A stretch of DNA of 64,000 bases from Escherichia phage vB_EcoM_E9.1: sequence record PP886230; one strand, given 5' to 3'. Within the stretch, counting starts at the first letter, position 1. Every line of letters begins with the position of its first letter. Both the position numbers and the translations under genes were made by a program. Of this stretch, positions 1 to 16,360 are shown piece after piece. A model generated the notes under the pieces. The model made no database searches. It was not told the DNA's origin and saw only the letters and a program-made list of their open reading frames with translations.

Positions 1-577
1 AGTAGGCAGAGGAAGTCTGCCGTACTTTGTAGTTTCCAAGCTCCTTTTCCATTTTGTAAATTACATCAAATGTAATCAAAAGTAATCACGCAATGATTAG
101 TACTGAATTATTACTTTCACCTTAATTACAATTACCCTTTTACCCTTCGGGGTAAAATTCAATTACCCCTTGAGGCTCCAGCAAAAAGTTGGTTAGTACT
201 CCATCCTAAATCTCGATCCTAAAAATTTTGGAGTACCTATGAAATAAAAGTTGGATCTTCGAAAGTTGAAATTTACGTTGGGACGTTTATGATTTGTGGG
301 ATATAATGATGTTTGTAGACGGGTAGTTCTCAAGAATATCAGTACTGAATGGTGAAAGAAAGTTATTGACATTATGATTCAGTACTGTATAATGTTTTAC
401 ATAGAGAGATGAGTTGCCGCAAACAATTCATTCACTCTACCTCCTGTCGTGAGACAGTACAGAAAGATAGTTCCTCCAATGGGTGGTACATCTTTTTGAA
501 CCTCATATGAAAATTGTAATAACAGTACTGATATTAACAGAATGGTGTCAGTACTGATTTTAATCTAAAGCATTATG

Positions 578-597
578 CCACCAGCACAAGCTGGTGG
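578..597. repeat. inverted Chi pair CCACCAGC-ACAA-GCTGGTGG (perfect palindrome)
   Basis: Chi octamer and its reverse complement separated by 4 nt. Confidence 0.6.
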
Positions 598-719
598 ATT
601 CCCTCTAACAGTATTCAGTACTACATGATAGTCTTCATCCTCCTAGGGTAACATAGTGAGGGCTATGATGGCAGTACTGAATACTCCCTTTCAAAAGATA
701 GATCTATGGTATAGTACTG

Positions 720-905
720 ACGGATTTTGGGCGTAGTTACCCTGGATGGATTTTGGACGTAGATATGTCTAGCCCTCCAGAAGTCTGGAAGTAAAGATGG
801 CTATCCATCTAGACGGCTAAACGGCTAGATTTCTGGATGGCTAGACGTTTGGACGGCTAAACGGCTAGATGGGTACACGTCTGGAAGTATAGACGGCTAA
901 ATCAA
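720..905. repeat. iteron-like short direct repeats (gacggctaaacggctagat x2, tctggaagta x2, ttttggRcgtag x2)
   Basis: Direct repeats read from sequence; no ORF. Confidence 0.6.
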
Positions 906-1517
906 AATTTTATTTTGTTTTTCCAATAGTTCCCCTACCGCGTGGGGATAGTTTCCCCGCAGTATCTGAAGTTAGATTTTTCTGAATCTGGAATCATTAT
1001 CTTATAAACTGGGGGCAATGTCAACGGCCTGGCCGGATATTTTTAAAAATTTTTTCAGTACTGAATTTTGGGCGTAACTATGCACCCGATGGGCTTGAGT
1101 CTTTCTCGACTTGATGGAACTATTATACAGTACTGAAAAAATAAAGCAATACCCTGGAAGCAAAAAAGTTTTAATTAATTTGCTTGCTATCCTGGGCCGG
1201 ACTATGGTACTATATTTCAGTACTGAGAAAGTGCGTTTACCTGCTAGGGTGCGGGAGTCTATCCTTTTTTTATATCTTGAATTTTGGACGGATCTTCCCA
1301 CCCCCTGGGGTATCCGCTTTCTCGCGTCTATGTAGTAATTATACGCTTTTTCAGGATCAAGTCAATACCTAAAAACAAAATAATTGAAAATAATTTAACG
1401 CGTTTAAACGGCCCGTAACGCCCTGGATTGTTGGGAGTGGTGCAAATGTATAGCTTAGGTGTATTAATGCGTTAGAATGCGTCTGAGGCCGTTTTATGGG
1501 GTGTAGTAGTGATTTGG

Positions 1518-1610
1518 TTGATTCAGTACTGAATAATAGTACTCCTATATAGAAAGATAGTTCCCCTGGATTGATTCAGTACTGAATAATAGTACTCCTA
1601 TATAGAAAGA
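1518..1610. repeat. tandem direct repeat, two 40-bp copies each containing TTCAGTACTGAA
   Basis: Copy 1 1518-1557, copy 2 1571-1610, identical. Confidence 0.7.
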
Positions 1611-1641
1611 AAACTATTTTAAAAGTATTTGTAGAAAGTAC

Positions 1642-1669
1642 TTGCACCGTACTGATAAAAGCGTATAAT
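1642..1669 (+). promoter_or_regulatory. sigma70-type promoter (TTGCAC-N16-TATAAT) plus downstream leader hairpin
   Basis: -35/-10 hexamers; hairpin gcgggaa..ttcccgc follows; this cassette recurs before most early genes. Confidence 0.6.
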
Positions 1670-1725
1670 GTTTTACATCGAGAGCGGGAACACTTCCCGC
1701 TACACTTTAAGAGAGATTAATACGA

Positions 1726-2087
1726 TGGCAACTCAAATCACCAAAATTATTGCTAACCTGGTTAACTTCCGCGACGAGATGAAAGATCTTCCGGCGGCGA
1801 CGGTTAAAACTCACATTGACGCATACCGCGAACTGATTAAAATGCTGCCGCTTAAGCGTGAACAATACGCCGCTACCGTGATGCTTGATGCGATGATCCA
1901 TAAGATGATCGCCAGTGATTTGACGATGGTTTATCAGTATATGGGCGAAAATTTCGCGGTGTGTAGTAAGCCAGTACCAGGGATGGCAACAACTGAGGAA
2001 TTGCACGGCTTAAACTTAAAACAAGATGCATGGGATAATATGCCTCGTTTCCTGGTATGGGCTGACAGTGGCAAAATTTACAAATAA
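1726..2087 (+). CDS. hypothetical early protein
   Basis: ORF with promoter, leader hairpin and SD upstream; the track ORF from 1668 begins inside the promoter. Confidence 0.65.
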
Positions 2088-2101
2088 GTTTAATAAAGTA
2101 C

Positions 2102-2129
2102 TTGCAAACTATGTTTAATGGCGTATAAT
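2102..2129 (+). promoter_or_regulatory. sigma70-type promoter (TTGCAA-N16-TATAAT)
   Basis: Consensus hexamers followed by leader hairpin ggtggggaa..ttccccac. Confidence 0.6.
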
Positions 2130-2182
2130 GTTTTACATCAGGTGGGGAATAGTTCCCCACTATATAAGAGGATTAAAAAAAA

Positions 2183-2422
2183 ATGGCTAAATCAAAAATG
2201 TTCTTAGGTCACAAAAACAAAACTCATTGGAATGTAAGCCTGTGGATTAATAACGATGAGGGATTGTATCGGTTGGCCCTGGACTTTATTGCCGCCAATA
2301 CTAATCGCAATGATGCGGCCCGTCATATGATGTTATTTTTAGAACAGACTGGACAAGATAAAACACCGGACGGATTCAAATATAGCACTACTGCGATCCG
2401 TGCGGCGATGGTTGGAATGTAA
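2183..2422 (+). CDS. hypothetical early protein
   Basis: ORF 79 aa, SD aagagga upstream. Confidence 0.65.
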   Translation: MAKSKMFLGHKNKTHWNVSLWINNDEGLYRLALDFIAANTNRNDAARHMMLFLEQTGQDKTPDGFKYSTTAIRAAMVGM

Positions 2423-2510
2423 TAGAATAGAATTTATTTAAAGTACTATTGCACGGGGATAGTACTTTATAATAGTGTTTTATTCATACACCAACGATAA
2501 GGGCAACAGC

Positions 2511-2777
2511 ATGAATATTAAGTATTTTGCGACGCGTGAACAAGCTCGGATCGCCGCTCGCCAGGACGGGGCAACGTTTAAAGATATGGGCGTACAATCG
2601 GAACGTGGTAAACGTTGGGCCATTGTAAAGCGTAGTACCGCCAGATCATTACAGTACTGGTTAGCGGCCTTAAAAAGTCCCGATAGTGTATCGCGTCGAG
2701 TGGTAGAAATAAAGCTCGACCGAAAGGGCAACCGCGTGACCGTGTACCGTACTAAAAAGATTGCAGTACTTGAATAA
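2511..2777 (+). CDS. hypothetical early protein, paralogue of 14728-15123
   Basis: Shares FKDMG and DRKGNRVTVY with the later ORF; start moved to ATG after the promoter. Confidence 0.65.
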   Translation: MNIKYFATREQARIAARQDGATFKDMGVQSERGKRWAIVKRSTARSLQYWLAALKSPDSVSRRVVEIKLDRKGNRVTVYRTKKIAVLE

Positions 2778-2784
2778 AAAGTAC

Positions 2785-2812
2785 TTGCAAACTATGTTTA
2801 AAGGCGTATAAT
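2785..2812 (+). promoter_or_regulatory. sigma70-type promoter (TTGCAA-N16-TATAAT)
   Basis: Consensus hexamers plus leader hairpin. Confidence 0.6.
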
Positions 2813-2864
2813 GTTTTACATCGAGAGCGGGAACTCTTCCCGCCTATAACCTGGAGTAATAAAA

Positions 2865-3095
2865 ATGACTAATATGTATATGACTGAAGTTAAAACCGTA
2901 AAAGATACTACCACGAATAAAACTACTTACTTACAGCGGATCTGTGGTGTATGGCAACGTATCAGCAAATCAAAGTACTTTAAATTAACATCATATGCAA
3001 ACCGTTCTGATTCATTCAGTACTGAAATAAAAGGTAATAAAGTACACCAATACGGCACTTATTATTATTACAGCCTGGACGCGATTGCAGTATAA
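2865..3095 (+). CDS. hypothetical early protein
   Basis: ORF 76 aa; SD ggagt upstream. Confidence 0.6.
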   Translation: MTNMYMTEVKTVKDTTTNKTTYLQRICGVWQRISKSKYFKLTSYANRSDSFSTEIKGNKVHQYGTYYYYSLDAIAV

Positions 3096-3123
3096 GCAGT
3101 TTACAAATCTTTACAATTGCCGG

Positions 3124-3205
3124 TATTGACTTATTTTGTCAGTACTGGCATAATGTATTCATTGGCAGATAAGCCGTAGCCCATAGGGTGCGGGAGTGTA
3201 TCTAT
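3124..3205 (+). repeat. promoter-containing repeat element (REP copy, variant): TTGACT promoter followed by conserved core cccatagggtgc
   Basis: Matches the elements at 9337, 11025, 13372, 16361 and 18622. Confidence 0.55.
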
Positions 3206-3344
3206 AGAAAAATTAGTTTAGTATAGTTACAATTGTGCACCCGGTGGGTTAGCTGTTGTCATGGGGTATATTATGCCAGTACTTGATAATGCTGTCAATA
3301 CTTTTTTTTACTATCCAGTACAGAAAACTATTTTTAAAAAGTAC

Positions 3345-3372
3345 TTGCAAACTATGTTTAAAGGCGTATAAT
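3345..3372 (+). promoter_or_regulatory. sigma70-type promoter driving a short non-coding transcript
   Basis: TTGCAA-N16-TATAAT; no ORF before the next promoter. Confidence 0.55.
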
Positions 3373-3377
3373 GTTTT

Positions 3378-3460
3378 ACATCAGGACGGGGGAACGAAAT
3401 AAGTAACTTCCCGTTAAGTAGCCCAGGAGTAAGGCACACGAAAAACTCCCCTGATAAAAT
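3378..3460 (+). ncRNA. candidate small RNA (copy 1), about 85 nt between two promoters
   Basis: Conserved sequence with compensatory-looking stems (acgggg..ccccgt, atcagga..tcccctgat); second copy at 13532-13612; no ORF. Confidence 0.35.
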
Positions 3461-3463
3461 AGT

Positions 3464-3491
3464 TTGACAAATGTTTTTAAAAGCGTATAAT
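3464..3491 (+). promoter_or_regulatory. sigma70-type promoter (TTGACA-N16-TATAAT)
   Basis: Consensus hexamers. Confidence 0.6.
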
Positions 3492-3523
3492 ACTTACATC
3501 AACTACTGAATGAGGGTTACAAA

Positions 3524-4135
3524 ATGAAAACTATCACTACTACTACTTTCGTTATGGATTTTTCTGAATTGAACGCAGAACAAAAAACGTCAGCTATCGA
3601 ACTGGTTCGGGAACGTGAAAAAAACTCAAACGACAATTATTTTTCTGAAAGTGAAATTGAATACTATAAAGAAACAGTACTACCGGAATATGGCATTAAT
3701 GACGCTGAAATACAATTCAGTGGCTTTTGGTCCCAGGGTGACGGTGCATCAATCAGTACTGACCACGTTGACGCAGTGAAGTTTTTACGCAAGGTAAGAG
3801 CATTAACTAAGTATCGCTCAATCCGTCACTTGCTGAATGAAGATGATTTGGCGATGAGTGTAAAGCGTTCGCACTCCCACTACTCGCATGAGAATACTGT
3901 AAGCGGGTACATTGAATCGGCTTACACTGATTTAACCGCAAAACAAGAAACGTTAGTTAATGAGCTTGAGGAACTACTCACTGATACTATTCGTGAATTG
4001 TCCCGCAAGTTGTACCGTGATTTAGAGAATGCATATGAGGATCAATTCACTACTGAAAACATTACGGCACTGATTGAGGGTAACGAGTATCAATTCAATG
4101 TTATTGATGGCGTAGTGGAATCAATCGAATATTAA
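3524..4135 (+). CDS. hypothetical acidic protein (203 aa)
   Basis: ORF with SD gagggt; acidic composition. Confidence 0.7.
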   Translation: MKTITTTTFVMDFSELNAEQKTSAIELVREREKNSNDNYFSESEIEYYKETVLPEYGINDAEIQFSGFWSQGDGASISTDHVDAVKFLRKVRALTKYRSIRHLLNEDDLAMSVKRSHSHYSHENTVSGYIESAYTDLTAKQETLVNELEELLTDTIRELSRKLYRDLENAYEDQFTTENITALIEGNEYQFNVIDGVVESIEY

Positions 4136-4227
4136 TTTAAAAAGTACTTGCAAACTAAGTTTAAAAGCGTATAATACTTTATATCGAGAGCGGGAATAGT
4201 TCCCGCTACTAATGAGGAATACTACAA

Positions 4228-4392
4228 ATGAATACTTTTACCTTCGCTCAATTGAACGCCCTGGATGTATTGTCTGATGCTTTGCGGGATGCAACTGAAA
4301 GCGGTTTATTTGACAATGTTGACATTCACCCTGATGTAATTAATAATTTTTGTGATGCTATCGCAGAAGTACTGGAAGATCTAAAAAAATAA
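4228..4392 (+). CDS. hypothetical small protein (54 aa)
   Basis: ORF below the track cutoff with promoter, hairpin and SD gagga upstream. Confidence 0.5.
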   Translation: MNTFTFAQLNALDVLSDALRDATESGLFDNVDIHPDVINNFCDAIAEVLEDLKK

Positions 4393-4480
4393 TAGAAAGT
4401 ACTTGCAATTAGTTTTTAGTACTGTATAATGTTTTACATAGAGGGGAGAAATGGTTCTCCCTGGTAATGAGGAAAATACA

Positions 4481-4702
4481 ATGGCTAATATCACTACTCT
4501 TTCCCAACTGGAAGCACTGGTTAAATCTATGCGGGAACATGCCGACAATATCGGCGTAAAAGATCCAGCCGTTTGCTTCTGCGACGAATTGAATGATGAT
4601 ACCCTGGTAATAGCAGAAGTCCAGGACGTTTCTAACTATTCCTCGCGTTACACTGGCGGCGTAGCAAATAAAGGTGACTTCTGTTTATACCTTACCAAAT
4701 AA
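4481..4702 (+). CDS. hypothetical early protein
   Basis: ATG after the leader hairpin; the track ORF from 4451 starts inside the hairpin. Confidence 0.65.
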   Translation: MANITTLSQLEALVKSMREHADNIGVKDPAVCFCDELNDDTLVIAEVQDVSNYSSRYTGGVANKGDFCLYLTK

Positions 4703-4705
4703 CAA

Positions 4706-4737
4706 CGCGGGGAGATAATAACTCCCCGTTACTTTTT
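4706..4737 (+). terminator. rho-independent terminator
   Basis: GC hairpin cgcggggag..ctccccg then T-run. Confidence 0.6.
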
Positions 4738-4945
4738 CAGTACTGAATCATTTAATAGACGGATCTCGGCACCCGGTGGGTTAGTGACTGTTTCGTCTTG
4801 ATGTAGTAATTATGCCAGTACTGGATGCACTTGTCAACAACTATTTTTCAAATACTTTTTATTAAAATACTTGCTAATAGTTTTTAAACGCGTATAATGT
4901 TTTGCATAGGGGGAGCGGTTCCCCTGGTAACTAAGGAATAATAAA

Positions 4946-5182
4946 ATGCTTGAACAAATCAAATCAACGTCTGCGAATGTAACGGGAACGGTTGTACACT
5001 TTACTAGTGATGAATCGCGGGGCGTTCCCTATTGTGCTGTACATGTAAACACTGATGGCAACTACTGGTTTACGGTTTACGGATCATATTCATTTGGACG
5101 ACCAGGGCATCAAAAAATTCTGGATAAAGTACAGCCAACGGGTAAAAATATCACGGCTGAAATGTTTTATAAAAAATCATAA
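4946..5182 (+). CDS. hypothetical early protein
   Basis: ORF 78 aa with promoter, hairpin and SD. Confidence 0.65.
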   Translation: MLEQIKSTSANVTGTVVHFTSDESRGVPYCAVHVNTDGNYWFTVYGSYSFGRPGHQKILDKVQPTGKNITAEMFYKKS

Positions 5183-5267
5183 AGTACTTGATAATAGTTT
5201 TTAGTACTGTATAATATTTTACATCGCAAGGGGGTAATGGTTCCCCCTGGTAACTAAGGATAATCAA

Positions 5268-5567
5268 ATGAAAGTTGCATTCATCGCCCTGGCTTTATCT
5301 GTTTCCTCTTTTGCTGTTAATGCGTCGTTAGATGTAAGTAGTGAAAAATTCATTCAGTGCACTGTAGCAATGACAGATGAAAGTACTGGCGAGATTGTAT
5401 TAAAGGATCTGGAGATTCAGCCGGAAGCATTTAAAAACGGCCCGTTCCATGAAGAAGACGAAAACGGTAGCACAACAATTTATTATGATGCCAGTACTAA
5501 ACGCGGGTCGGTCACTGTTATGGATACTGAGAAAGTAACTCATACTGGCGTTATTAATTGCCGTTGA
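5268..5567 (+). CDS. putative secreted protein with N-terminal signal peptide
   Basis: N-terminus MKVAFIALALSVSSFAVNA is hydrophobic with an AxA-type site. Confidence 0.65.
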   Translation: MKVAFIALALSVSSFAVNASLDVSSEKFIQCTVAMTDESTGEIVLKDLEIQPEAFKNGPFHEEDENGSTTIYYDASTKRGSVTVMDTEKVTHTGVINCR

Positions 5568-5588
5568 TAGATACTACGGGGTAACATC

Positions 5589-5819
5589 ATGACTAAGCGA
5601 ATTGTTTTACTTAACGAAAGCAGTACTACACAACTACTTAACGCCGTGCATTATGATATTGAAACGAGCGTTAATCTTATCAGTACTGTAGTACTGTTGG
5701 ACACTGGAAAGGTCGCCAATGATAAAGCGATTGCAGGTATACTAACGGATCTTGAGCCTGGTAGCAGTGCACCAATAACGTTAAATGGTAAAGTGTTTAA
5801 TATTTTACTCACTGATTAA
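5589..5819 (+). CDS. hypothetical protein
   Basis: ORF 76 aa immediately downstream, SD present. Confidence 0.6.
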   Translation: MTKRIVLLNESSTTQLLNAVHYDIETSVNLISTVVLLDTGKVANDKAIAGILTDLEPGSSAPITLNGKVFNILLTD

Positions 5820-5825
5820 GTACAT

Positions 5826-5850
5826 AGCCCACCTGGTGGGCTTTTTTGTT
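5826..5850 (+). terminator. rho-independent terminator
   Basis: Hairpin agcccacctggtgggct then TTTTTT. Confidence 0.7.
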
Positions 5851-6050
5851 TTTGTAGTATCGTAGTACTGAGATACTTTGAAAATAGTTTTAAAAAAGTA
5901 GTTGACATTACCGCAGAAAAGCGTAGAATGTATTACATCAAGACGGGGAGCACTAAGTAGACCGCCAGTAAGTCGAACGAAAAACTGGACACGTCGAGAA
6001 AACTTTGATACACTAATAAACGTAAACTAAACTTTAATTGAGGATTTATA

Positions 6051-6533
6051 ATGGCTAATGTAAAATCATTCATCAAAGCACTGGTAGCAAATGAAACTAA
6101 CGTCGCGGCTGAGATCCTGGCTGAACTGGATAACGATACCATGAAAGCGGTACGCAATAATTTTAACATCGCGTACAGTACTGCGAAAGAACTACAAGCA
6201 AATAAAGCGGCAGAAATTGAAGCGGCAAAGGCGGCCCGTGAAGCAGAACTACAAGCAACAATCGAAAGTATCCAGGCGGCGGTGTCTGGATTGGATCTGG
6301 AAGTGGTTGTGGAAATGGCACATAAAGCCCTGGCGGTTAAGTATGGTGAAGATAAGCCAGAATCTAAACCCAAAAAATGGATTCAGGAACGCGTAGCGGT
6401 AGTACTGGACAACGGGGAAGAATATCTGATTCCGGTGCGTGGTAACTGTATTGCGGTAGTACTGGACGCTATCAAAGAAAGCGGTATGACTCGCGAGGAA
6501 TGGATCGAAGCTCATCGCAAAGTTGAAGCATAA
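6051..6533 (+). CDS. hypothetical Ala/Lys-rich protein (160 aa)
   Basis: ORF with TTGACA promoter near 5903 and a long leader; SD gagga. Confidence 0.7.
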   Translation: MANVKSFIKALVANETNVAAEILAELDNDTMKAVRNNFNIAYSTAKELQANKAAEIEAAKAAREAELQATIESIQAAVSGLDLEVVVEMAHKALAVKYGEDKPESKPKKWIQERVAVVLDNGEEYLIPVRGNCIAVVLDAIKESGMTREEWIEAHRKVEA

Positions 6534-6554
6534 CAATTAAAGTACTGAATCACT

Positions 6555-6582
6555 AGCCCACTGTATAAGTGGGCTTTTTTGT
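6555..6582 (+). terminator. rho-independent terminator
   Basis: Hairpin agcccactgtataagtgggct then TTTTTT. Confidence 0.7.
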
Positions 6583-6817
6583 GTTTATCGTTTACCAGGC
6601 CACCAGCACCGCCTAGAAACGATTCTAACGCATTAAACGGATTATCTGATGCATTGCCCTAGCTGGTGGCGTTAAGGCTGTAAGAACGCGATTGAGAGCG
6701 TTTAAAGTATTTTGCAAAAAGTAATAAAAAGTACTTGAACGATTAAGAGATTAGCGTATAATGTTTTACATCGAGAGGGGGAAACGGTTCTCCTTCCAAA
6801 TCAAAGGAATCAAAACA

Positions 6818-7045
6818 ATGGCTATTATCATTACTCGCGTATCTGGTACTACTGGCAACGAACAAGTAGTTGCAGTCATTACGAACAAGGCAGGTGCGGA
6901 ATTGCAAAATGCAATGAATACCTGGGCCGTTAATGAGTTCGGTCAGTGGGCAAGTGTAGCATACATTGAAACCTATCAAGTGCCGTCGATTAGTTTAACT
7001 GATTTGGGCGTTGAGCGTATCCTTTGCCTTGATGAATTAAATTAA
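6818..7045 (+). CDS. hypothetical early protein
   Basis: ATG after promoter and hairpin; the track ORF from 6761 starts in the promoter. Confidence 0.65.
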   Translation: MAIIITRVSGTTGNEQVVAVITNKAGAELQNAMNTWAVNEFGQWASVAYIETYQVPSISLTDLGVERILCLDELN

Positions 7046-7130
7046 AAAAGTACTTGCAAAGTAAATCGAATAAAGTATAATACATTACATCAAGGGGAGA
7101 AATGGTTCTCCCCACTACAAGGAAACTAAA

Positions 7131-7343
7131 ATGGCTATCATTACTAAAATCAAAGTTAGTAAATCACTGGTTAAACTTGAAGAAGTGAAAGAAGGTTATA
7201 AAGTATCTTGGTGCGGTATGTATCGGACGTTCGCAGATATAGATGATGCGATCAATTATTACACTGACACGGTTAAAAACTTTGTTCGTGCTGATGTGGT
7301 TATGGCAGTGGCAACATATAAAGCATCAAAAGAAAGTAAGTAA
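7131..7343 (+). CDS. hypothetical early protein, paralogue of 10287-10466
   Basis: N-terminus MAIITKIKV resembles MAIIAKTEI. Confidence 0.65.
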   Translation: MAIITKIKVSKSLVKLEEVKEGYKVSWCGMYRTFADIDDAINYYTDTVKNFVRADVVMAVATYKASKESK

Positions 7344-7424
7344 AAATATTATCACAGTACTATTGACATAGTTTGATAGTACTGGCATAATAACTTTTAT
7401 CAAGACAACTAAGAGGAAATTAAA

Positions 7425-7769
7425 ATGGCTAACATCAATACTATAGCAGCACAAAATATCAACCTGTCTTCTGTTGAAGTTGTACATATTGCCGCTCGGC
7501 GTTGGTTCCAGGCTTCATATGGTAACACTTATTTCTCTTTAAGTGTAGACGTAGAAATTGATGGTAATTTTATTGAAGTAGTAAACGTGCCGTTCCAATA
7601 TGGATACGGGGATCATTTTGACACTGTAGCAATGGAAGAATTTAGCAAGGTTATTAATATGGAAGGTAAAGAGTTTTTACGCGGTTCTTATCTTTCCCGT
7701 TTTTGCCGTGATAATAATATCACTGTTTATAGTTCTGTTAGTGATGTTAAACGCAAAAAAGATCTTTAA
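7425..7769 (+). CDS. hypothetical early protein, paralogue of 14309-14632
   Basis: Shared GNTY, YGYG and C-terminal DVKRKKD. Confidence 0.7.
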   Translation: MANINTIAAQNINLSSVEVVHIAARRWFQASYGNTYFSLSVDVEIDGNFIEVVNVPFQYGYGDHFDTVAMEEFSKVINMEGKEFLRGSYLSRFCRDNNITVYSSVSDVKRKKDL

Positions 7770-7849
7770 TTAGCTTTACTTTATGCAGATACTTTGATAT
7801 AGTGTCTGCATAGGGGAAAGAAATTAAATTAACTTAAGAGGATAGTATA

Positions 7850-8119
7850 ATGAAAAATATCAGTACTTTAATCGATGCAGGTACTCATGTTCGTCGGTCT
7901 ATGGTTGCAACCAGTACTACAAAACAAGTAGCGAGCGGTTATCTTGTATTTGTGCACGATGGTAAACTCCTGGAACGTTCAATCAATTTTGATGTTAAAA
8001 ACAATTGCCGTTTTATTATCTTTAAGCGTGAGCAATATAAAATTGATTTACCAGCAAAGCCCATTAGTGGGGCGTACAACGTGCAATCATTGTTTGAACG
8101 TCAACCATACACCTATTAA
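7850..8119 (+). CDS. hypothetical protein
   Basis: ORF 89 aa, SD aagagga. Confidence 0.6.
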   Translation: MKNISTLIDAGTHVRRSMVATSTTKQVASGYLVFVHDGKLLERSINFDVKNNCRFIIFKREQYKIDLPAKPISGAYNVQSLFERQPYTY

Positions 8120-8170
8120 TCAAAACATCGTTAGCGGTCGATTCAGGCCGCTTATATTGGGGATTATACC

Positions 8171-8443
8171 ATGAACGTTAATCAAGTACTGAATGAGATC
8201 GAAAGCATCATTAAACCGATGAAGCGTACTGATGCTATGTTAACACCGGAAGAATGCCGCCTTTATGAGCGTTACAGCGTCGAACAAGTCCAGGCAATGG
8301 CTATGGCTACCCCAGCCGTTAAACCGCCTGAGAATGCGTTACAGGACGTTACAGGGGATTATATCATCAATCCAGTACTAGGGAAGATGGCTGCAATCAC
8401 CGAAGATCAACAAGACTACTTAAGCCAGTACTTAAAAGGTTAA
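8171..8443 (+). CDS. hypothetical protein
   Basis: ORF 90 aa. Confidence 0.6.
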   Translation: MNVNQVLNEIESIIKPMKRTDAMLTPEECRLYERYSVEQVQAMAMATPAVKPPENALQDVTGDYIINPVLGKMAAITEDQQDYLSQYLKG

Positions 8444-8448
8444 TTAAT

Positions 8449-8658
8449 ATGCTTACTGTACAGGATAAGATCGACATCTTAAAGGTTAATATGTATGTGA
8501 TTGATGCAGAACCTGGTAAAGTATTTGCATACGATGATAGTACTGTAAGCGATTTCTACTATAGCCAGGCCGTGGGGGATCTTTCTGTACAGTCGGTTAT
8601 TGAAAACGTAGTTAATGCAGCGTATGAGCATTTACTTTCAAATAGTACTTGCAATTAG
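8449..8658 (+). CDS. hypothetical protein
   Basis: ORF 69 aa, closely follows previous gene. Confidence 0.55.
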   Translation: MLTVQDKIDILKVNMYVIDAEPGKVFAYDDSTVSDFYYSQAVGDLSVQSVIENVVNAAYEHLLSNSTCN

Positions 8659-8728
8659 TTTTTAAACGCGTATAATGTTTTACATCGAGAGCGGGAATAG
8701 TTCCCGCCTCACTTTTAAGGAATATGAA

Positions 8729-8875
8729 ATGAAAGCATCAAAAAAGAGTACTAACAAGAAAGCACGTTCAACCTTAGATGGGGTATTCCCTTTACGTTTC
8801 GTTGATGAAGTGGTTTCCTACCCGCCTGGCCTTACTCCTGAGATGGTAGAAAGTTTGCGTAAATCTAAAAAATAG
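8729..8875 (+). CDS. hypothetical small basic protein (48 aa)
   Basis: In-frame ATG with SD taagga 8 nt upstream; the track ORF from 8675 begins in the promoter. Confidence 0.55.
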   Translation: MKASKKSTNKKARSTLDGVFPLRFVDEVVSYPPGLTPEMVESLRKSKK

Positions 8876-8956
8876 TACTTGCAATTAGTTTTTAGTACTG
8901 TATAATGTTTTACATGAAGGGGAGAAATGATTCTCCCCAATAACAGGAGAAACAAA

Positions 8957-9109
8957 ATGAAACAATACAACGCTCGGTTTGATGTTACTATCGGTAACGG
9001 CAAAGGTCAATTCTCTTTCAGTACTCGCCGCAGTTATACAGAAAACTTCCTGCGTAATTGTGCATTGACCGCCGCTCAAATTAAACATTATTTTCAGGCT
9101 AAAAAATGA
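8957..9109 (+). CDS. hypothetical small protein (50 aa)
   Basis: ATG after SD aggaga; promoter and hairpin upstream. Confidence 0.55.
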   Translation: MKQYNARFDVTIGNGKGQFSFSTRRSYTENFLRNCALTAAQIKHYFQAKK

Positions 9110-9195
9110 GATCATTAGCTTATTACAGTTCGGCCCTGGTCGGTGCATTGATCGCGGCGTTGTTAGTAACCTATCTATTCTTTATGGTGATTTAA
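9106..9195 (+). CDS. putative single-pass membrane peptide (29 aa)
   Basis: ATGA overlap with upstream stop; hydrophobic sequence. Confidence 0.35.
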   Translation: MRSLAYYSSALVGALIAALLVTYLFFMVI

Positions 9196-9333
9196 ATGAA
9201 TCCTAACGGTATAATTTACAGTACTCCTAAAACGAAAGCAGACAAGGTAAACGCTAAAAAAGCGAAAGTAAAGGAGTACATCAAACAAGGAATGACACGA
9301 AAGGCGGCGATTCTAAAAGCTAAAAATAAATGA
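9196..9333 (+). CDS. hypothetical small Lys-rich protein (45 aa)
   Basis: ATG directly after previous stop (TAAATG). Confidence 0.35.
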   Translation: MNPNGIIYSTPKTKADKVNAKKAKVKEYIKQGMTRKAAILKAKNK

Positions 9334-9336
9334 AAA

Positions 9337-9432
9337 AGTGGTTGACTTCGGTCAGCCATTTTGCTATTATATATTCATTGAGAGATAGCTCACTAGCCCA
9401 CAGGGTGCAGGAGTGTATCTATTGTATAATGT
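9337..9432 (+). repeat. promoter-containing repeat element (REP copy)
   Basis: ttgacttcggtcag..ctattatat then ..ctagcccacagggtgcaggagtgtatc. Confidence 0.6.
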
Positions 9433-9553
9433 TTGAGTACTGAAAACTATTTTAAAGTATTTGATAAAAAGTACTTGCAAACTATCTCAATAAGCGTATA
9501 ATGTTTTACATCGCAAGGGGAAACGGTTTCCCCTAGTAATAAGGAAACGAATC

Positions 9554-9895
9554 ATGACTATCTCAATTGCTCAATCTAACTTTGAAAATGAAATCATCGC
9601 CCAGGCACTGCGTTTAAATGATGGTCGGGCCGAAATCAATTACGGTTTCAATTCAGGCGGTTGTGAAAAATATCAGTACTTTGTAACGGCTGATGGCGGT
9701 GTACTGGGCATCAATACAGTTATTGTAAACATACAGAAAATTAATTTCAATGATCCAGACGATAGCCAGTTTTACATCACTGGCGTAGACGTGAACTATG
9801 AGGATGACTCACTAACTGATGACCACACTGGCGAGAAGTTAGAAAGTGCATACGGTGAAGATGATTATCAGTCCGGTCCAGAAGATTTCGAATAA
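9554..9895 (+). CDS. hypothetical acidic protein
   Basis: ORF 113 aa with promoter, hairpin and SD. Confidence 0.7.
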   Translation: MTISIAQSNFENEIIAQALRLNDGRAEINYGFNSGGCEKYQYFVTADGGVLGINTVIVNIQKINFNDPDDSQFYITGVDVNYEDDSLTDDHTGEKLESAYGEDDYQSGPEDFE

Positions 9896-9991
9896 TATTA
9901 AAAAATAGTTTGACAATAGATTATAGTACTGTATAATAGTTTACATCAAGGGGAGAAAAACTTCTCCCCACTAACAGAGAGAGAAAACAAA

Positions 9992-10204
9992 ATGGCTAAT
10001 ATCCGGTCGAAATTAAAAAATGCAAAACAAGTTTTATTTTCAGATCATGAATACTTTAATAAAGATATTACAGGAGTTACAAGTATCAAGGAAGTAAAAG
10101 AAAAAACCGGCGTTTTGTGTGATGTGCGATTAGTTGGGACATTTGGGAATAACGTGCTATATCGCTGTGGTGATTACAATTTTACACTGACTATCATTAA
10201 CTAA
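9992..10204 (+). CDS. hypothetical protein
   Basis: ORF 70 aa with promoter and hairpin. Confidence 0.65.
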   Translation: MANIRSKLKNAKQVLFSDHEYFNKDITGVTSIKEVKEKTGVLCDVRLVGTFGNNVLYRCGDYNFTLTIIN

Positions 10205-10286
10205 AAATATTATCACAGTACTATTGACATAGTTTGATAGTACTGACATAATAACTTTTATCAACTACACTACTAAGGAATTAAAA

Positions 10287-10466
10287 ATGGCTATCATCGC
10301 AAAAACTGAAATCATCGGCCTGGATTCTATCATCATGACGTTTGAAGATCAAAAAGGTATGTATGTGGTTTCCTATGGTGATTATGTTCGGGAGTATGAA
10401 ACGGTAGACGAAGCCTTTGAAAGTTACATTCGCCAGGTGAATAAAGCATACGACGACTACCGCTAA
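10287..10466 (+). CDS. hypothetical small protein (59 aa), paralogue of 7131-7343
   Basis: ORF below track cutoff; SD aagga; promoter 10215-10250. Confidence 0.55.
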   Translation: MAIIAKTEIIGLDSIIMTFEDQKGMYVVSYGDYVREYETVDEAFESYIRQVNKAYDDYR

Positions 10467-10565
10467 AATATATTACCAGTACTATTAAAGATATTGACAA
10501 CGTTTGATAGTACTGTATAATAAGTTTTATAAACAGTAGTTAACTTAACCTAAGAGAGAAATAAA

Positions 10566-10709
10566 ATGATCGCACTGGATTCATTCATCGACGCAGTACT
10601 GGCAAAAACTGGCGAGGATCTGACCGCAGAACAATACGCGATGATCGAACAATGTCAACAGGACGGTAAATCGGTGAAAGATACTGTTAAGATTATCCGC
10701 AAGATGTAA
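10566..10709 (+). CDS. hypothetical small protein (47 aa)
   Basis: ORF with SD agagaga and promoter upstream. Confidence 0.45.
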   Translation: MIALDSFIDAVLAKTGEDLTAEQYAMIEQCQQDGKSVKDTVKIIRKM

Positions 10710-10714
10710 GATTA

Positions 10715-10745
10715 TAGCCCACTGGTTAACGCTGGTGGGCTTTAA
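10715..10745 (+). terminator. terminator-like hairpin containing a Chi octamer
   Basis: agcccac..gtgggct stem; GCTGGTGG at 10732-10739; weak T-run. Confidence 0.45.
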
Positions 10746-10814
10746 TTCATTACCCTATACAATGCCAGTACTAAACCGTTTATCTCGTTAGAATGCGTTA
10801 CAGGACGTTTACCA

Positions 10815-11012
10815 ATGATTAGCATGAAATCAGTACAAAAACAAATAGAAACATTATCAAAAATTAAACGTAAACAGTACTCCTTAGAATATACAATCAA
10901 TGGTAACTATCATCTAATGAAAGAAAATAATTTTATAGTCATTGATGAATCATTGCAAATCATTAGTATAGTACTGAAAGCATTAATCAATGACAGAAAA
11001 AAATTAAAATAA
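10815..11012 (+). CDS. hypothetical protein
   Basis: ORF 65 aa. Confidence 0.5.
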   Translation: MISMKSVQKQIETLSKIKRKQYSLEYTINGNYHLMKENNFIVIDESLQIISIVLKALINDRKKLK

Positions 11013-11024
11013 ACTATTGACAAT

Positions 11025-11112
11025 ATCATCCAGCACTGGCATAATACTTACACCAAGACGAGAACGTCACTAACCCATAGGGTGCACAAATGTAACTGTA
11101 TAATATTGATCA
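11025..11112 (+). repeat. promoter-containing repeat element (REP copy, variant)
   Basis: TTGACA..cataat promoter then ..ctaacccatagggtgcacaaatgtaac. Confidence 0.5.
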
Positions 11113-11343
11113 AAAAATGATCTGATCAATACTTGATCAATTTGCGTAAAGTAGTATAATTCTATGCAGTTGGTTAGACGAAAGGTTATGATTAGTAGTG
11201 CAAGTGTATAAAAATTTTCATGGTGTATCGTTCCGCACATATGGGGATGAATATGTGGTATCATGTGGATTGGAAAAAGTAAGAACAAGTAATATTATTG
11301 TCGCATTACAGTACTATAGTATTTTTATAATGAGGTTAAAATA

Positions 11344-11601
11344 ATGGCTGTAGGATTCGCGAAAGATGGGGCCGAGCAAGACGAGATTAACGCAGTGATT
11401 CAGGCCGCCGTTAACCACGCTAGAAAGCAAATTAACGCACAAATAGAATCACTGATACATTGCCTCGACTGCGGCGATATAATCCCTGAGAAACGACGCC
11501 AGGCCGTTAAGGGATGTAAGTACTGCATAACTTGCCAGGAGGATCATGATAGTACTTTTAAACGTCCCCCGCGTAATTGTTGGCATAGATCTATGAGATA
11601 A
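11344..11601 (+). CDS. TraR/DksA-family C4 zinc-finger protein
   Basis: CLDCGDIIPEKRRQA..CKYCITC matches the zf-DksA/TraR pattern. Confidence 0.75.
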   Translation: MAVGFAKDGAEQDEINAVIQAAVNHARKQINAQIESLIHCLDCGDIIPEKRRQAVKGCKYCITCQEDHDSTFKRPPRNCWHRSMR

Positions 11602-11664
11602 AAAGTATTGACAGTACTGAAAGATAGTGTATAATGTTTTATATCTTAACTGAGGATAGTAATC

Positions 11665-12021
11665 ATGGGAATACAACATATCACGCGTACTACTGACAAT
11701 GGCGAGATCACTGGCTATCAAGTACAGGGCAAAGTAGCACAATTGCAGTACTGGTTTGTGAAACGTGGAATCATTGCACCGGATCTTGATTATGACCGTG
11801 TAGCGTTTATTGATTCTCTTTATGTTGATCCTGATAGTCGGGGCAATGGTGAAGGTAACGAATTAATGAATGCCTTTATTGATGCCGCCGATGATTCAGA
11901 TTGTATCATTTTAGAATGCGATACGGGAGAAGATAACGCCTTTAATCTTAAAGAATGGTACGAAGGTTTCGGATTCGAGGTACTGATCGATAGTGAATAT
12001 CCTATCATGATTTTATCATAG
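11665..12021 (+). CDS. putative GNAT-like acetyltransferase (small)
   Basis: VDPDSRGNGEGNELM resembles GNAT motif A and EWYEGFGFEV motif B; assignment tentative. Confidence 0.5.
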   Translation: MGIQHITRTTDNGEITGYQVQGKVAQLQYWFVKRGIIAPDLDYDRVAFIDSLYVDPDSRGNGEGNELMNAFIDAADDSDCIILECDTGEDNAFNLKEWYEGFGFEVLIDSEYPIMILS

Positions 12022-12099
12022 TACTTGCATTTAGTTTTCAGTACTGTTATAGTACTTGCATCAAGGGGAAACATCTTCCCCTACTAAGAGGAAATAAAA

Positions 12100-12288
12100 A
12101 TGGAAAACTTATCAAGTATTTTAGTACAAGATGATTTCGGTAATCCTGGAAGTGCTATCATTGTTCGGGGTAATAAAGCAACGTTTGTTATTGCTGGTGG
12201 ACCAGTACAGCGTAGCATTAAAAATAATGCTGTTACCATTAATAATGTACGCTATCGCTTAGATAAAGAATTGATTCATAAACTGTAA
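12100..12288 (+). CDS. hypothetical protein
   Basis: ORF 62 aa with promoter and hairpin. Confidence 0.6.
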   Translation: MENLSSILVQDDFGNPGSAIIVRGNKATFVIAGGPVQRSIKNNAVTINNVRYRLDKELIHKL

Positions 12289-12315
12289 TATTAATTTAAT
12301 AGAGGATAACAATAA

Positions 12316-12639
12316 ATGTACATTCATACTACTATCACAAAGGAAGTCCGTTGCCAGTTCGAAAGTATTCCGGGCGTATGTTTCATCACTGGTACGTTTT
12401 CCCCTGGTGATCGTGATAATCCAGTACTGTTACAATTACGCCATCCATCATGGGATAAAGCATTTGATCTACCGTTGAATGAATTCGCAACTACTGCTGA
12501 AAAGTACATTAAAAATATTCGCGAGAATGATCGACTATTCATTAATGCTTTTAGTGATTCCGCGTTAAGCGAGATCCACGGCGTATTGGTTGCAATCATG
12601 GAATCAATGCAGAAAACTAAATTCAAACAAGGTGAATAA
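12316..12639 (+). CDS. hypothetical protein
   Basis: ORF 107 aa; SD gagga. Confidence 0.65.
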   Translation: MYIHTTITKEVRCQFESIPGVCFITGTFSPGDRDNPVLLQLRHPSWDKAFDLPLNEFATTAEKYIKNIRENDRLFINAFSDSALSEIHGVLVAIMESMQKTKFKQGE

Positions 12640-12722
12640 AAACTATTGACAATGCAACCCAGTACTGTATAATAGTTTACATGAAGGGGAGAAATGATTC
12701 TCCCCACTGAGAGGAAAGAAAA

Positions 12723-12935
12723 ATGCAAGGTCAACTAATCGTTCGTAAATGGTCTGATACTAACGAAAAACCGTGGGATGTACAATACATCGGACCGGAT
12801 GGGGTATCACGTTATCAGCCTGGCGTAACGCATAGTACTGAGCAATATGCCGCCGCTCACCGCGAACGCCTGTTAGAATCCATGAAACAGGGATTCTGTG
12901 AAAAATTCATTCAAGATCATTGGCTGAAAGATTAA
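12723..12935 (+). CDS. hypothetical protein
   Basis: ORF 70 aa with promoter and hairpin. Confidence 0.65.
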   Translation: MQGQLIVRKWSDTNEKPWDVQYIGPDGVSRYQPGVTHSTEQYAAAHRERLLESMKQGFCEKFIQDHWLKD

Positions 12936-12952
12936 TAGAAGGAGTACAGCTT

Positions 12953-13045
12953 ATGCAAATGAATCCGATGATTATTGTTTTAGCTGTACTTATGATCATT
13001 CATGCAATTGTAGAAGTATTAACGCAATCAGGAGTAATAAAATGA
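12953..13045 (+). CDS. putative small membrane peptide (30 aa)
   Basis: SD aaggagt; hydrophobic; first of three overlapping micro-ORFs. Confidence 0.4.
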   Translation: MQMNPMIIVLAVLMIIHAIVEVLTQSGVIK

Positions 13046-13215
13046 TTCAAGTAGAATTATCAGTACTGAAAGATCTGTTTTATCGGTTAGGTACTACTGG
13101 AGAGTATCCTAAAAGTGATACCGCAAAACTTTTTGTATCACTCGACTTATGGCAACGCGAACAATTAGTAATGTCCTGGCGTAAAGGTAAAGCAGATCGC
13201 GAGGTGAAAGCATGA
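13042..13215 (+). CDS. hypothetical small protein (57 aa)
   Basis: ATGA overlap with upstream stop. Confidence 0.4.
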   Translation: MIQVELSVLKDLFYRLGTTGEYPKSDTAKLFVSLDLWQREQLVMSWRKGKADREVKA

Positions 13216-13361
13216 AAGAATTCTTATTCGAAGTAGTGTTTCAAGGTGTCGGTAGTAACCAACTGATTCGCTCAAGTGGTTACAATGTTAACCAGGCATG
13301 GAATAACATTAAACAAATGTACCCGAACGCTATCACCTATCGCAACCCGAAAGAAGTTTAA
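13212..13361 (+). CDS. hypothetical small protein (49 aa)
   Basis: ATGA overlap with upstream stop. Confidence 0.4.
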   Translation: MKEFLFEVVFQGVGSNQLIRSSGYNVNQAWNNIKQMYPNAITYRNPKEV

Positions 13362-13371
13362 AAATATTTGA

Positions 13372-13452
13372 AAAAGGGATTGACTCCGGTCAGTCCCTTT
13401 GCTATTATATACGCATAGAAACAATTCAGCCCACCGGGTGCATAAATGTATC
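13372..13452 (+). repeat. promoter-containing repeat element (REP copy)
   Basis: gggattgactccggtcagtccc..ctattatat then ..cagcccaccgggtgcataaatgtatc; Chi GCTGGTGG at 13451-13458. Confidence 0.6.
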
Positions 13453-13531
13453 TATTATATGCTGGTGGCTAGTACTGAAAACTATTTTTAAAAAGTACTT
13501 GCATTGTATTTAGAATCAAGTATAATGTTTT

Positions 13532-13612
13532 ACATCAGGACGGGGAACGAAACAAGTAACCCCGTTAAGTAGTCCAGGAGTAAGACATACGAAAACCTCC
13601 CCTGATAAAATA
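13532..13612 (+). ncRNA. candidate small RNA (copy 2)
   Basis: Near-identical to 3378-3460; substitutions look compatible with the proposed stems; sits between two promoters. Confidence 0.35.
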
Positions 13613-13674
13613 GTTTGACAATAGAAATTAAACGAGTATAATACTTACATCAACCACTGATAAGGAAACATAAA

Positions 13675-13950
13675 ATGCGGATTCTACTGACAGCTAACGA
13701 AATCGAACAAGTACTGACTACTAACCTGGAAGACTGGAAACGTGAAGCAGATATCCAGGCGGTTCAATGGTTAAATGATAAGTTAACGCCGGATGACTTA
13801 AGCAAGATTGTAGATCCTCAATTCTACGAAGATATCCACGACACCGCGTTAAGCGTCGAGGATGTACTAGATAAGCACTTTATTGATACTGATTTGCAGG
13901 TTTACGGTCGTAAAAACTTTATCACTATTCACGACATTTACAATAATTAA
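13675..13950 (+). CDS. hypothetical protein
   Basis: ORF 91 aa. Confidence 0.65.
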   Translation: MRILLTANEIEQVLTTNLEDWKREADIQAVQWLNDKLTPDDLSKIVDPQFYEDIHDTALSVEDVLDKHFIDTDLQVYGRKNFITIHDIYNN

Positions 13951-14037
13951 GTATTGACAAAGTATCTTAGTACTGTATAATAGTTTACATCAAGCGAGGG
14001 GAATGGTTCCCCTCCTAACTAAAAGAGAGAAATAAAA

Positions 14038-14220
14038 ATGGCTAAGTGCACTATCTGCAAGAAAGAAATAGTATTAGTTCCAAGTGCCCGTGAACGTGCC
14101 GCTCGGTTCGGTGGCAAAGCGTCAGACTATACAAAAATGTTTACTACCCATACAGCTTGCCAGGTAGCAAAACGTTCACAAGAAAGCGTAGAATTAATGC
14201 GTAAACTTTCCAAAAAATAA
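14038..14220 (+). CDS. hypothetical basic protein
   Basis: ORF 60 aa with promoter and hairpin. Confidence 0.6.
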   Translation: MAKCTICKKEIVLVPSARERAARFGGKASDYTKMFTTHTACQVAKRSQESVELMRKLSKK

Positions 14221-14308
14221 GTATTGACAAAGTATCTTAGTACTGTATAATAGTTTACATCAAGTGAGGGGAAACGGTTCCCCTCCTAACAAAGAGAGAG
14301 AAATAAAA

Positions 14309-14632: not shown

Positions 14633-14727
14633 TAGAATCCATTTAAAGTACTATTTGACATTGCCCAGATAGTACTTTATAATAGACTCTAACTTGTAGT
14701 ACTAACTTAACTAATAGGATGTATACC

Positions 14728-15123: not shown

Positions 15124-15145
15124 TAACTTGCAGTACTAACAACAC

Positions 15146-15171
15146 GGCGGGATCAGTTCCCGCCTTTTTTA
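15146..15171 (+). terminator. rho-independent terminator
   Basis: Hairpin ggcgggatcagttcccgcc then TTTTTT. Confidence 0.7.
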
Positions 15172-15184
15172 TAGGACAAACAAA

Positions 15185-15439: not shown

Positions 15440-15492
15440 CAGTACTCAAATGTTTTAGTACTATATGTACATACCAACACGGGGGAAACAAA

Positions 15493-15735: not shown

Positions 15736-15766
15736 GATAGTTACATTAACTCAAGGAGAACATGCA

Positions 15767-16351: not shown

Positions 16352-16360
16352 AAAAAGATT

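Follow-up and report, generated by a model that had tools for sequence, protein, structure and literature searches.

Escherichia phage vB_EcoM_E9.1 is represented here by a 64,000-nucleotide (nt) stretch of sequence record PP886230, which at its full length is called the window, and the subject of this analysis is the gene-free block at its beginning, positions 1-1650, which precedes a first gene with its ATG at 1725 (product matching phrog_7352, E = 6e-59). The original prediction, made from the letters of the DNA and a list of its open reading frames (ORFs), saw in this block iteron-like repeats, a tandem duplication, clustered palindromes and an inverted Chi pair, and proposed a replication origin, a packaging site or a terminal region. 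Most likely, with a probability of roughly 0.72, an Asteriusvirus jumbo coliphage carries this block as the untranslated leader at the left end of its ~20.1-kb direct terminal repeat (DTR), with putative roles in terminal processing and early control. Its longest ORFs are 1002-1301(-) with 99 amino acids, 1111-1335(+) with 74, 193-372(-) with 59 and 409-510(+) with 33. The minus-strand ORFs 1002-1301 and 193-372 match no PHROG or Pfam family, whereas the five downstream genes do, and 1002-1301(-), 193-372(-) and 409-510(+) were rejected as genes because nine aligned Asteriusvirus leaders show 1-nt or non-triplet indels in close relatives at ~1162, 335 and 482; the earlier statement that the block holds no credible ORF therefore stands.

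When window 1-1700 was compared by megablast, 43 phage records matched, 33 of which cover at least 80% of the query at one place; the closest, at up to 97.6% identity, are PBECO4/121Q-type genomes of 310-386 kb, and the best-matching records that were opened belong to Asteriusvirus or to unclassified relatives. Base 1 of the window is also base 1 of the record in CRJP21, BAU.Micro_ELP-22, fEgEco12, BF17 and vB_Ec-M-J (94.5-97% identity). The annotation of vB_Ec-M-J labels 1..21525 as 'Direct Terminal Repeats' and places the first gene at 1760. For fEgEco12, a DTR of 20,993 bp was defined by PhageTerm, with the linear arrangement and the end fragments backed by restriction digests (PMC13070987); for G17, a terminal redundancy of ~20 kb was derived from coverage (PMC6563267), and DTRs have also been reported for BF17 (~20.5 kb), Sharanji (20,668 bp) and ELP-22 (assigned to the DTR class). 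The block is collinear with, and starts at, the mapped left terminus of the Asteriusvirus DTR, so that the terminal region among the earlier proposals is borne out by the base shared with five records, by the annotated DTR and by the fEgEco12 termini.

By homology, the right boundary of the fEgEco12 DTR falls at window 20,107, which gives a DTR of 20,107 bp (window 1-20,107). The position of this right end agrees in fEgEco12, vB_Ec-M-J (within 1 nt), G17 (by coordinates), CRJP21 and BF17; the CRJP21 and BF17 records both finish in ..GGGCGGGTAACCT, which is the DTR right end, and the G+C content passes from ~0.39 to ~0.32 at window 20,107. Both DTR copies are present in records of relatives. 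In the right DTR copy of fEgEco12, where the concatemer-type junction reads ...GATATCCCACTA^AGTAGGCAGAGG (a caret marks the cut throughout), ~300 gene-free bases with three more copies of TTCAGTACTG precede base 1. Because the gene-free stretch continues for ~300 bp to the left of base 1, the cut falls inside a non-coding region of ~1.95 kb. The terminal position has already been published for the genus, and the published accounts consulted on the ~20-kb repeats of this phage group give only their lengths, one of them stating that the repeat region could be assigned no function. The internal anatomy, with its inverted cut motif, its modules shared among lineages, its promoters directed leftward, its elements like those of T5 and the position of its Chi pair in a DTR-wide bias, appears to be undescribed in the searchable literature; it is relevant to the maturation and protection of very long linear genomes in jumbo phages, and could be of use in the engineering and annotation of therapeutic coliphages of this genus.

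The two boundaries of the repeat carry the following features.

1..21, plus strand: mature left genome end, cut ..CCACTA^AGTAGG; base 1 shared by five records, junction read from fEgEco12 and G17.
5-21, plus strand: left-end hairpin GGCAGA-ggaag-TCTGCC, with GAAGTC at +12..+17.
20063..20107, plus strand: DTR right boundary, with TTGGACTATG exactly 35 nt before the cut ..GGGTAACCT^TAGCGACTTCG; placed by homology mapping.

The cuts were compared at PhageTerm-defined junctions from three lineages. The left cuts read CCACTA^AGTAGG in fEgEco12 and G17, CCACTA^AGTCCG in Muenster (Alcyoneusvirus) and CCGCTA^TATCTT in fENko-Kae01; the right cuts, in reverse complement, read GAAGTCGCTA^AGGTTA in fEgEco12, GGTGGCTA^AGGCAT in Kae01 and AAAGTGCTA^AGCCTA in Muenster, with the respective cores TCGCTA^AG, TGGCTA^AG and GTGCTA^AG. 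The sequence (G/A)CTA^AG is present at six of the seven mapped junctions and GCTA^ at the seventh, in inverted orientation between the two boundaries. Read inward, the packaged genome ends start with 5'-AG, the left end of Kae01 being the exception, and the discarded side ends in (G/A)CTA. The probability that a random left/right pair shares an in-register 5-mer is 0.0018. Cleavage at a defined, conserved sequence, the mark of a terminase cut site, was found in all three lineages.

Other conserved elements lie at fixed distances from the cuts. At a constant 35 nt inside the right cut stands TTGGACTATG in Asteriusvirus and Kae01 (Muenster has TCGGACTGTT there), the sequence between this element and the cut not being conserved; GAAGTC or AAAGTC occupies +12..+17 of the left end in the window, in BF, in XbC2 and in Muenster, and the palindrome CAGTACTG is found 10-25 nt outside several cuts. 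These fixed-distance elements at both cuts are candidate terminase sites, and the likeliest recognition elements would be the terminus-proximal modules in 1-242 together with the flank outside the cut. The packaging site of the original prediction survives in part: the left cut is at the left edge of the block and has a motif common to the cuts of three lineages, and the recognition sequences are candidates only. An asymmetric site in opposite orientations at the two boundaries is compatible with strand-specific nicking: the enzyme, a site-specific nuclease and probably the terminase, would cut the top strand on the left and the bottom strand on the right, and strand-displacement synthesis over 20 kb could then provide a full repeat for each packaged genome, as in the classical T7/Watson scheme. 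The inverted cut motif thus predicts both strand-specific nicks and the synthesis of a 20-kb copy.

In the concatemer junction of T7, the terminal repeat reportedly lies between short direct repeat arrays, with pac signals and transcription across the junction. The jumbo phage ends resemble this arrangement in being defined, in having short-period direct repeat arrays beside the repeat boundary and in a predicted promoter that reads across the junction, and the model of staggered nicks and strand displacement for duplication of the repeat would apply to both. They differ in that the repeat is 20 kb long, against 160 bp in T7, in that the promoters are of the sigma-70 host type and not those of a phage polymerase, and in the unit and sequence of the arrays. 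The cosN-cosB region of lambda and pacL/pacR of SPP1 are terminase recognition regions, and the likeness to them would consist in a sequence-defined cut with conserved elements at fixed distances (TTGGACTATG at 35 nt; GAAGTC at +12..17); unlike them, the jumbo phages have two cuts, 20 kb apart and inverted, and no small-terminase binding repeats were identified.

Several observations weigh against the interpretation of the block as a terminal leader. The termini rest on homology to the closest records (96-98% identity) and on a first base that the window shares with records of relatives; the right cut of vB_Ec-M-J differs by one base, and the ELP-22 record stops ~130 nt short of the shared right terminus, its deposited repeat probably having been trimmed. 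In EJP2, the first ~175 nt and the outer flank are unrelated to other Asteriusvirus, which means that the terminus-proximal sequence is not genus-wide; the EJP2 positions aligned to 176-300 are nearly identical to the other Asteriusvirus genomes, and the divergence suggests either that a module was exchanged at the terminus or that EJP2 has another end. With 73 copies in the window, CTAAG cannot by itself be the recognition signal, so that more context must be read, and the left cut of Kae01 is without AG. The staggered-nick step is one that we purely infer, PhageTerm positions showing neither nicks nor overhangs, and the promoters of the leader are predicted from sequence alone.

Between the left end and the first gene, the leader contains the following features.

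60..90, plus strand: 10-nt direct repeats AAATGTAATC AAAAGTAATC.. (Tandem Repeats Finder, TRF, period 10), strain-variable in copy number.
138..157, unstranded: hairpin TTTTACCC-ttcg-GGGTAAAA, with ATTACCC repeats on its flanks.
176..242, plus strand: most conserved leader island, with arms AGTACTCCA (195-203) and TGGAGTAC (230-237) around ATCCTAAA direct repeats.
366..393, plus strand: P_R0, predicted sigma-70 promoter (TTGACA, 16 nt, TATAAT; 12/12 consensus), with CAGTACTG at 380-387 ending the spacer.
398..620, plus strand: structured untranslated stretch 3' of P_R0, with two hairpins (one 5', one invariant with CTGTCGTGAGACAG) and a pair of palindromes (523, 549).
578..597, unstranded: inverted Chi pair, CCACCAGC (578-585)-acaa-GCTGGTGG (590-597).
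719..905, plus strand: 21-nt repeats GAYGGATTTTGGRCGTAG.. in two copies (719-739, 745-765), then ~17 8-nt units at 770-905.
918..964, unstranded: TTTTCCAwTAGyTCCCCTwCCGCG, then a hairpin with a covarying stem at 936-964.
1116..1149, minus strand: P_L2, predicted leftward early-type promoter and leader start (TTGCTT, 16 nt ending in CAGTACTG, TATAAT at 1127-1122).
1292..1365, minus strand: P_L1, predicted leftward promoter (TTGACT at 1365-1360, TATAAT at 1343-1338; 11/12 consensus), with leader ACATAGACGCGAGAAAGCGGAtACCCC-GGGGT.
1466..1497, plus strand: element like the IRD'/IRD inverted repeats of the T5 injection-stop region (AATGCGTTAGAATGCGTCTGAGGCCGTTTTATGG).
1518..1610, plus strand: tandem duplication, period 53 nt, identical core of 40 nt; CAGTACTG and AGTACT in each unit.
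1642..1727, plus strand: P_R1, predicted first early promoter (AAAGTAC-TTGCAC, 16 nt, TATAAT at 1664-1669), followed by a hairpin at 1684-1700, a ribosome-binding site (RBS) and the ATG at 1725.

Gene-free stretches of 1.1-1.8 kb also stand at the annotated left ends of Kae01, Muenster, Serratia BF, Yersinia fHe-Yen9-03 and Xanthomonas XbC2, and pairwise comparison with these leaders revealed collinear common islands at 176-242, 506-599, 730-905, 918-980 and 1292-1345; in GAP32, the array and hairpin module lies in DNA that is mostly devoid of genes. In composition, the leader is a patchwork of non-coding modules that recur in five other Rak2-like lineages. Island 176-242 is 93% identical in Kae01 (86-128) and 82% identical in XbC2 (54-120), is matched in Serratia BF, and is near-invariant in the divergent EJP2 despite the differing flanks; an 18-mer taken from it is restricted to 6 contigs in IMG/VR, of which four measure 348-371 kb. 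The DNA fold of window 1-260 has a z-score of -3.55. In the hairpin at 936-964, 6 of the 10 pairs stay paired through two-sided changes (7 sequences, six lineages), and island 1292-1345, which is made up of the P_L1 -10 element and the predicted transcribed leader, has a match in each of the five left ends of other lineages that were compared.

A catalogue of TTG...TATAAT sequences in the DTR yielded ~30 predicted rightward promoters of one build (window 1642-19,230), namely AAAGTAC-TTGCAA/TTGACA, a spacer of 16 nt with AGCG or (T/C)AGTACTG at its end, and TATAAT-GTTTTACAT, followed downstream by a 5' hairpin GGGGAGAA..TTCTCCCC and then the RBS. P_R1 would open this array of ~30 early transcription units, which fill the DTR. 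A build like that of P_R0 is matched in Muenster and Yen9-03. P_L1 has the same architecture as the rightward early promoters, P_L2 is a second copy of the 1292-1345 module, and the two are the only good leftward promoters in the DTR, both of them in the leader. The RNA fold of 398..620, at -70.3 kcal/mol, has a z-score of -6.07 against shuffles, with compensatory changes in 12 of 59 pairs (6 strains); that of the P_L1 region has a z-score of -3.9. It is also conceivable that this is an ordinary transcriptional leader or small-RNA locus which lies beside the terminus by chance and has no role in cutting or packaging, since the promoters are of the common early architecture, the structured untranslated RNAs show some covariation, and much of the leader (300-1650) is far from the cut. 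We regard this as unlikely, because the cut sits in the same gene-free block, the island 176-242 and the GAAGTC at +12..17 are terminus-proximal and keep their position across lineages, and no Rfam family is matched (Rfam 15 covariance models on 1-2200, no match at E <= 1). In a leader that serves terminal processing and early control, the part beyond the recognition modules would be the early control region, whose divergent host-type promoters would make structured untranslated RNAs; transcripts from P_L1 and P_L2 would run towards the cut site, and across it in concatemers, and a role of this leftward transcription in maturation is something we infer. Two further stretches of the window resemble these elements: 1621-1700 matches ~150-kb coliphages of the ESCO13/Schickermooser type at ~80% identity, and 4738-4830, between DTR genes, holds another copy of the leftward module, with GGCACCCGGTGGG.., TTTCGTCTTGATGTAGTAATTATGC, CAGTACTG and TTGACA beyond.

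The repeats noted earlier in the block are present as described. The short direct repeats at 720-905 are the two 21-nt copies and the ~17 8-nt units, which have the consensus CTAGAnGn and TRF periods of 8, 16, 32 and 40, and the 40-bp units at 1518-1557 and 1571-1610 do not differ at any position (100% identity). How many 53-nt, 8-nt and 10-nt units are present depends on the strain: the 53-nt array has an extra unit in JNE01 and internal deletions in 121Q and EJP2, the 8-bp array varies in relatives by unit-sized indels of +8 or +16 nt at 832, and vB_Ec-M-J has one additional 10-nt unit after position 71. Together with the palindromes, the repeat arrays are probably protein-binding sites.

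The inverted Chi pair was likewise located at 578-597, although as a local hallmark it fails, because Chi enrichment spans the whole DTR. On the plus strand, all 9 copies of GCTGGTGG in the window lie in the DTR (590...18,739), against 0.11 expected, and the next 44 kb contain none; on the minus strand there are 2 in the DTR against 0.08 expected. The DTRs of Kae01 and Muenster hold 12 and 2, and 7 and 1, Chi sites on the plus and minus strands respectively, with 1 (Kae01) and 0 (Muenster) plus-strand copies in the next 30 kb, so that the plus-strand enrichment within the DTR is ~100-fold in three lineages. Since the sequence contexts of the DTR Chi sites differ, they are not one repeated element, and exact GCTGGTGG, over-represented and biased in orientation, marks the DTR as a putative Chi recombination hotspot. 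The plus-strand sites are oriented to act on RecBCD that comes in from the right; for RecBCD coming in from the left, the leader pair supplies the one Chi of active orientation in the first 6.6 kb. The pair is kept, with a different loop, in Kae01 (484-503) and in 121Q/JNE01; in EJP2 the hairpin is lost and both octamers remain at shifted positions, which points to selection on Chi itself rather than on the hairpin. An ARNOLD 'terminator' called over the Chi hairpin in G17 was rejected as an intrinsic terminator, there being no T-run after the stem. The double Chi could serve the left end as a RecBCD stop and recombination signal, complementing the 9 plus-strand Chi that would guard the right end, and the one-sided ~100-fold enrichment predicts dependence on, or protection from, host RecBCD. 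The Chi orientation rule is set out in PMC12315714, where terminal clusters of oriented Chi are described for P1 and the lambdoid LLS; a single full-text literature search brought up no report of such clusters in these jumbo phages. The likeness to P1 and LLS lies in Chi numbers far above expectation, near the terminal redundancy and biased towards RecBCD entering one end; the present phages differ in being virulent jumbo myoviruses, in their exact DTR of 20 kb and in the opposite polarity that the inverted pair adds near the other end.

A further known system with which the leader has elements in common is the still unexplained injection-stop region of T5. The T5 Repeat Region 3 is an untranslated stretch of 1.2 kb at the inner edge of the repeat, with a 270-bp overrun into unique DNA, and pairs of DnaA boxes have been proposed as the core of the T5 injection stop signal (iss) (Davison, bioRxiv 10.1101/866236). 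Window 1466-1497 matches T5 9346-9377 and 6265-6289 with a score of 35.4 bits, against 25.3 +/- 2.2 in 150 dinucleotide shuffles, none of which reaches it (0/150), and is 97% conserved within the genus. The 8-bp array type also occurs in BF, Yen9-03, XbC2 and GAP32, in the T5-like Vibrio phage Pontus (14 units, adjoining GTGCAAATYCGA repeats that resemble the ones at the inner T5 repeat end), in the T5-like Aeromonas phage AhSzq-1 (25 units) and in the podovirus KPV811, 70-140 nt from its end. In Kae01 and Muenster the place of the array is taken by GAGAATGATTCTCATT repeats, which match T5 iss repeats with E = 2.6e-10. Arrays of GAGAATGATTCTCATT-type palindromes in Klebsiella jumbo phages lie at 680-800 and 1029-1056 in one and at 783-917 and 1058-1096 in Muenster, with a T5 counterpart at 9547-9716; by eye, these palindromes resemble the Fur-box consensus.

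As in T5 Repeat Regions 1-3, a gene-free block of more than 1 kb lies at the boundary of a long DTR and straddles it (1.65 kb inside, ~300 bp spilling into unique DNA outside); many direct repeats, inverted repeats and palindromes occur in both, strong host-type early promoters are near, the DTR is full of small early genes, there is the short IRD'/IRD match, and the array types are common to T5 relatives. Unlike in T5, the leader stands at the opposite boundary relative to gene direction, as a mirror image; neither DnaA-box pairs nor a long inverted repeat pair of the IRC/IRD type was seen in it, only ~30 nt of IRD' being matched where T5 has paired DnaA boxes in IRD'-spacer-IRC' repeats; AGTACT-type palindromes are not in the T5 repeat, and two-step transfer is not known for this group. 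The relation to T5 is one of resemblance with partial homology, not of membership.

It is doubtful that the leader is a T5-type injection-stop or entry-pause region, in which a host or virion factor bound to the arrays would hold up transfer during early expression of the DTR. The leader in the right DTR copy lies 18.5-20.1 kb from the right terminus and would be the inner edge of the first-entering DNA if the right end led. In favor of such a pause region are the mirrored layout with its overrun into unique DNA, the match at 1466-1497 above all 150 shuffles, the GAGAATGATTCTCATT arrays of Kae01 and Muenster with their match to T5 iss repeats, and the 8-bp array in Pontus and AhSzq-1, which in Pontus abuts GTGCAAATYCGA repeats. 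However, the leader has no DnaA boxes, the match to T5 extends over only ~30 nt, two-step transfer has never been reported for these phages, and a leading right end is an assumption. Chi polarity, which would suit an exposed right end, was considered as a pointer to the first-entering end and rejected, because the two Chi of the T5 repeat also point to its last-entering right end; it does not identify the leading end. Equally improbable is the fuller scenario in which Rak2-like jumbo phages use the 20-kb repeat as first-step-transfer DNA in the manner of T5, the right end entering first, 7-12 oriented Chi shielding it from RecBCD, ~30 early genes being expressed, the leader acting as pause or processing signal, and the repeat being regenerated by nicks at inverted GCTA^AG. 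CTA^AG was not found at the T5 end junctions, which have only a weak common CCACWG at +4..+9 of both ends. In the one T5 record read, the ends at 1-10 and 10,210-10,219, read inward as TGTCCACTG and GAGCCACAG, carry this CCACWG at +4..+9, and it may be another inverted end motif.

The remaining proposal was a replication origin, either of the iteron type or a T4-like R-loop origin in which the transcript of an early promoter in an AT-rich stretch primes synthesis. Direct repeat arrays and palindromes are present, and strong P_L1 and P_R0 would fire into untranslated AT-rich DNA (for example at 1265-1290 and 1360-1400), but an origin is very unlikely, as the leader contains no DnaA boxes (TTWTNCACA, both strands), no Fis consensus and a single IHF-like match, its AT-rich stretches are not diagnostic of an unwinding element, the supposed iterons repeat every 8 bp instead of being units of 17-22 bp in helical phase beside an initiator gene, no initiator was recognised among the five nearest flanking genes scanned (which match PHROGs of unknown function or a domain of unknown function, with one marginal holin-family match at E = 0.0025), unit numbers vary freely among strains, the same array type lies beside the termini of unrelated DTR phages, the cumulative GC skew rises monotonically through the leader with no switch, and nothing specific supports an R-loop at P_L1 or P_R0.

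The clustered palindromes are real in the leader and not diagnostic of it. Exact CAGTACTG occurs 10 times in 1-1650 (340, 380, 523, 549, 672, 1056, 1128, 1218, 1524 and 1577), with one-mismatch variants at 99, 617, 711 and 1646, and its density of 6/kb is ~7 times that of other intergenic DNA. As a local hallmark, the role in which they had first been cited, the palindromes do not hold: the whole 64-kb window has 60 copies of CAGTACTG against 0.7 expected, AGTACT is its commonest hexamer (250 against ~21 expected), and both occur between genes and in all three reading frames. Known protein-binding sites were considered for these palindromes and rejected. In an SlmA half-site, positions 1, 2, 4 and 5 are G, T, A and G, and position 3 is a purine (PMC3020112); an SlmA-binding site (GTGAGTACTCAC) was dismissed for AGTACT/CAGTACTG because the 64 kb contain no GTRAGYRCTYAC and the usual flanks are TTC..GAA, and a LexA box was dismissed for CAGTACTG-TATAAT because, by eye, the CTGT-N8-ACAG spacing is not kept. 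A full-text literature search on CAGTACTG, TCAGTACTGA, AGTACTTGCA and TATAATGTTTTACAT gave only non-phage papers among the matches listed, the two promoter strings appearing in none, and a scan of IMG/VR with the 16-mer TCCGMTTTCTCKCGTC returned mostly chance matches. AGTACT is also enriched in Kae01 and Muenster and absent in the T5 repeat, and two small-gene blocks of the window, 20-24 kb and 28-34 kb, contain neither AGTACT nor CAGTACTG.

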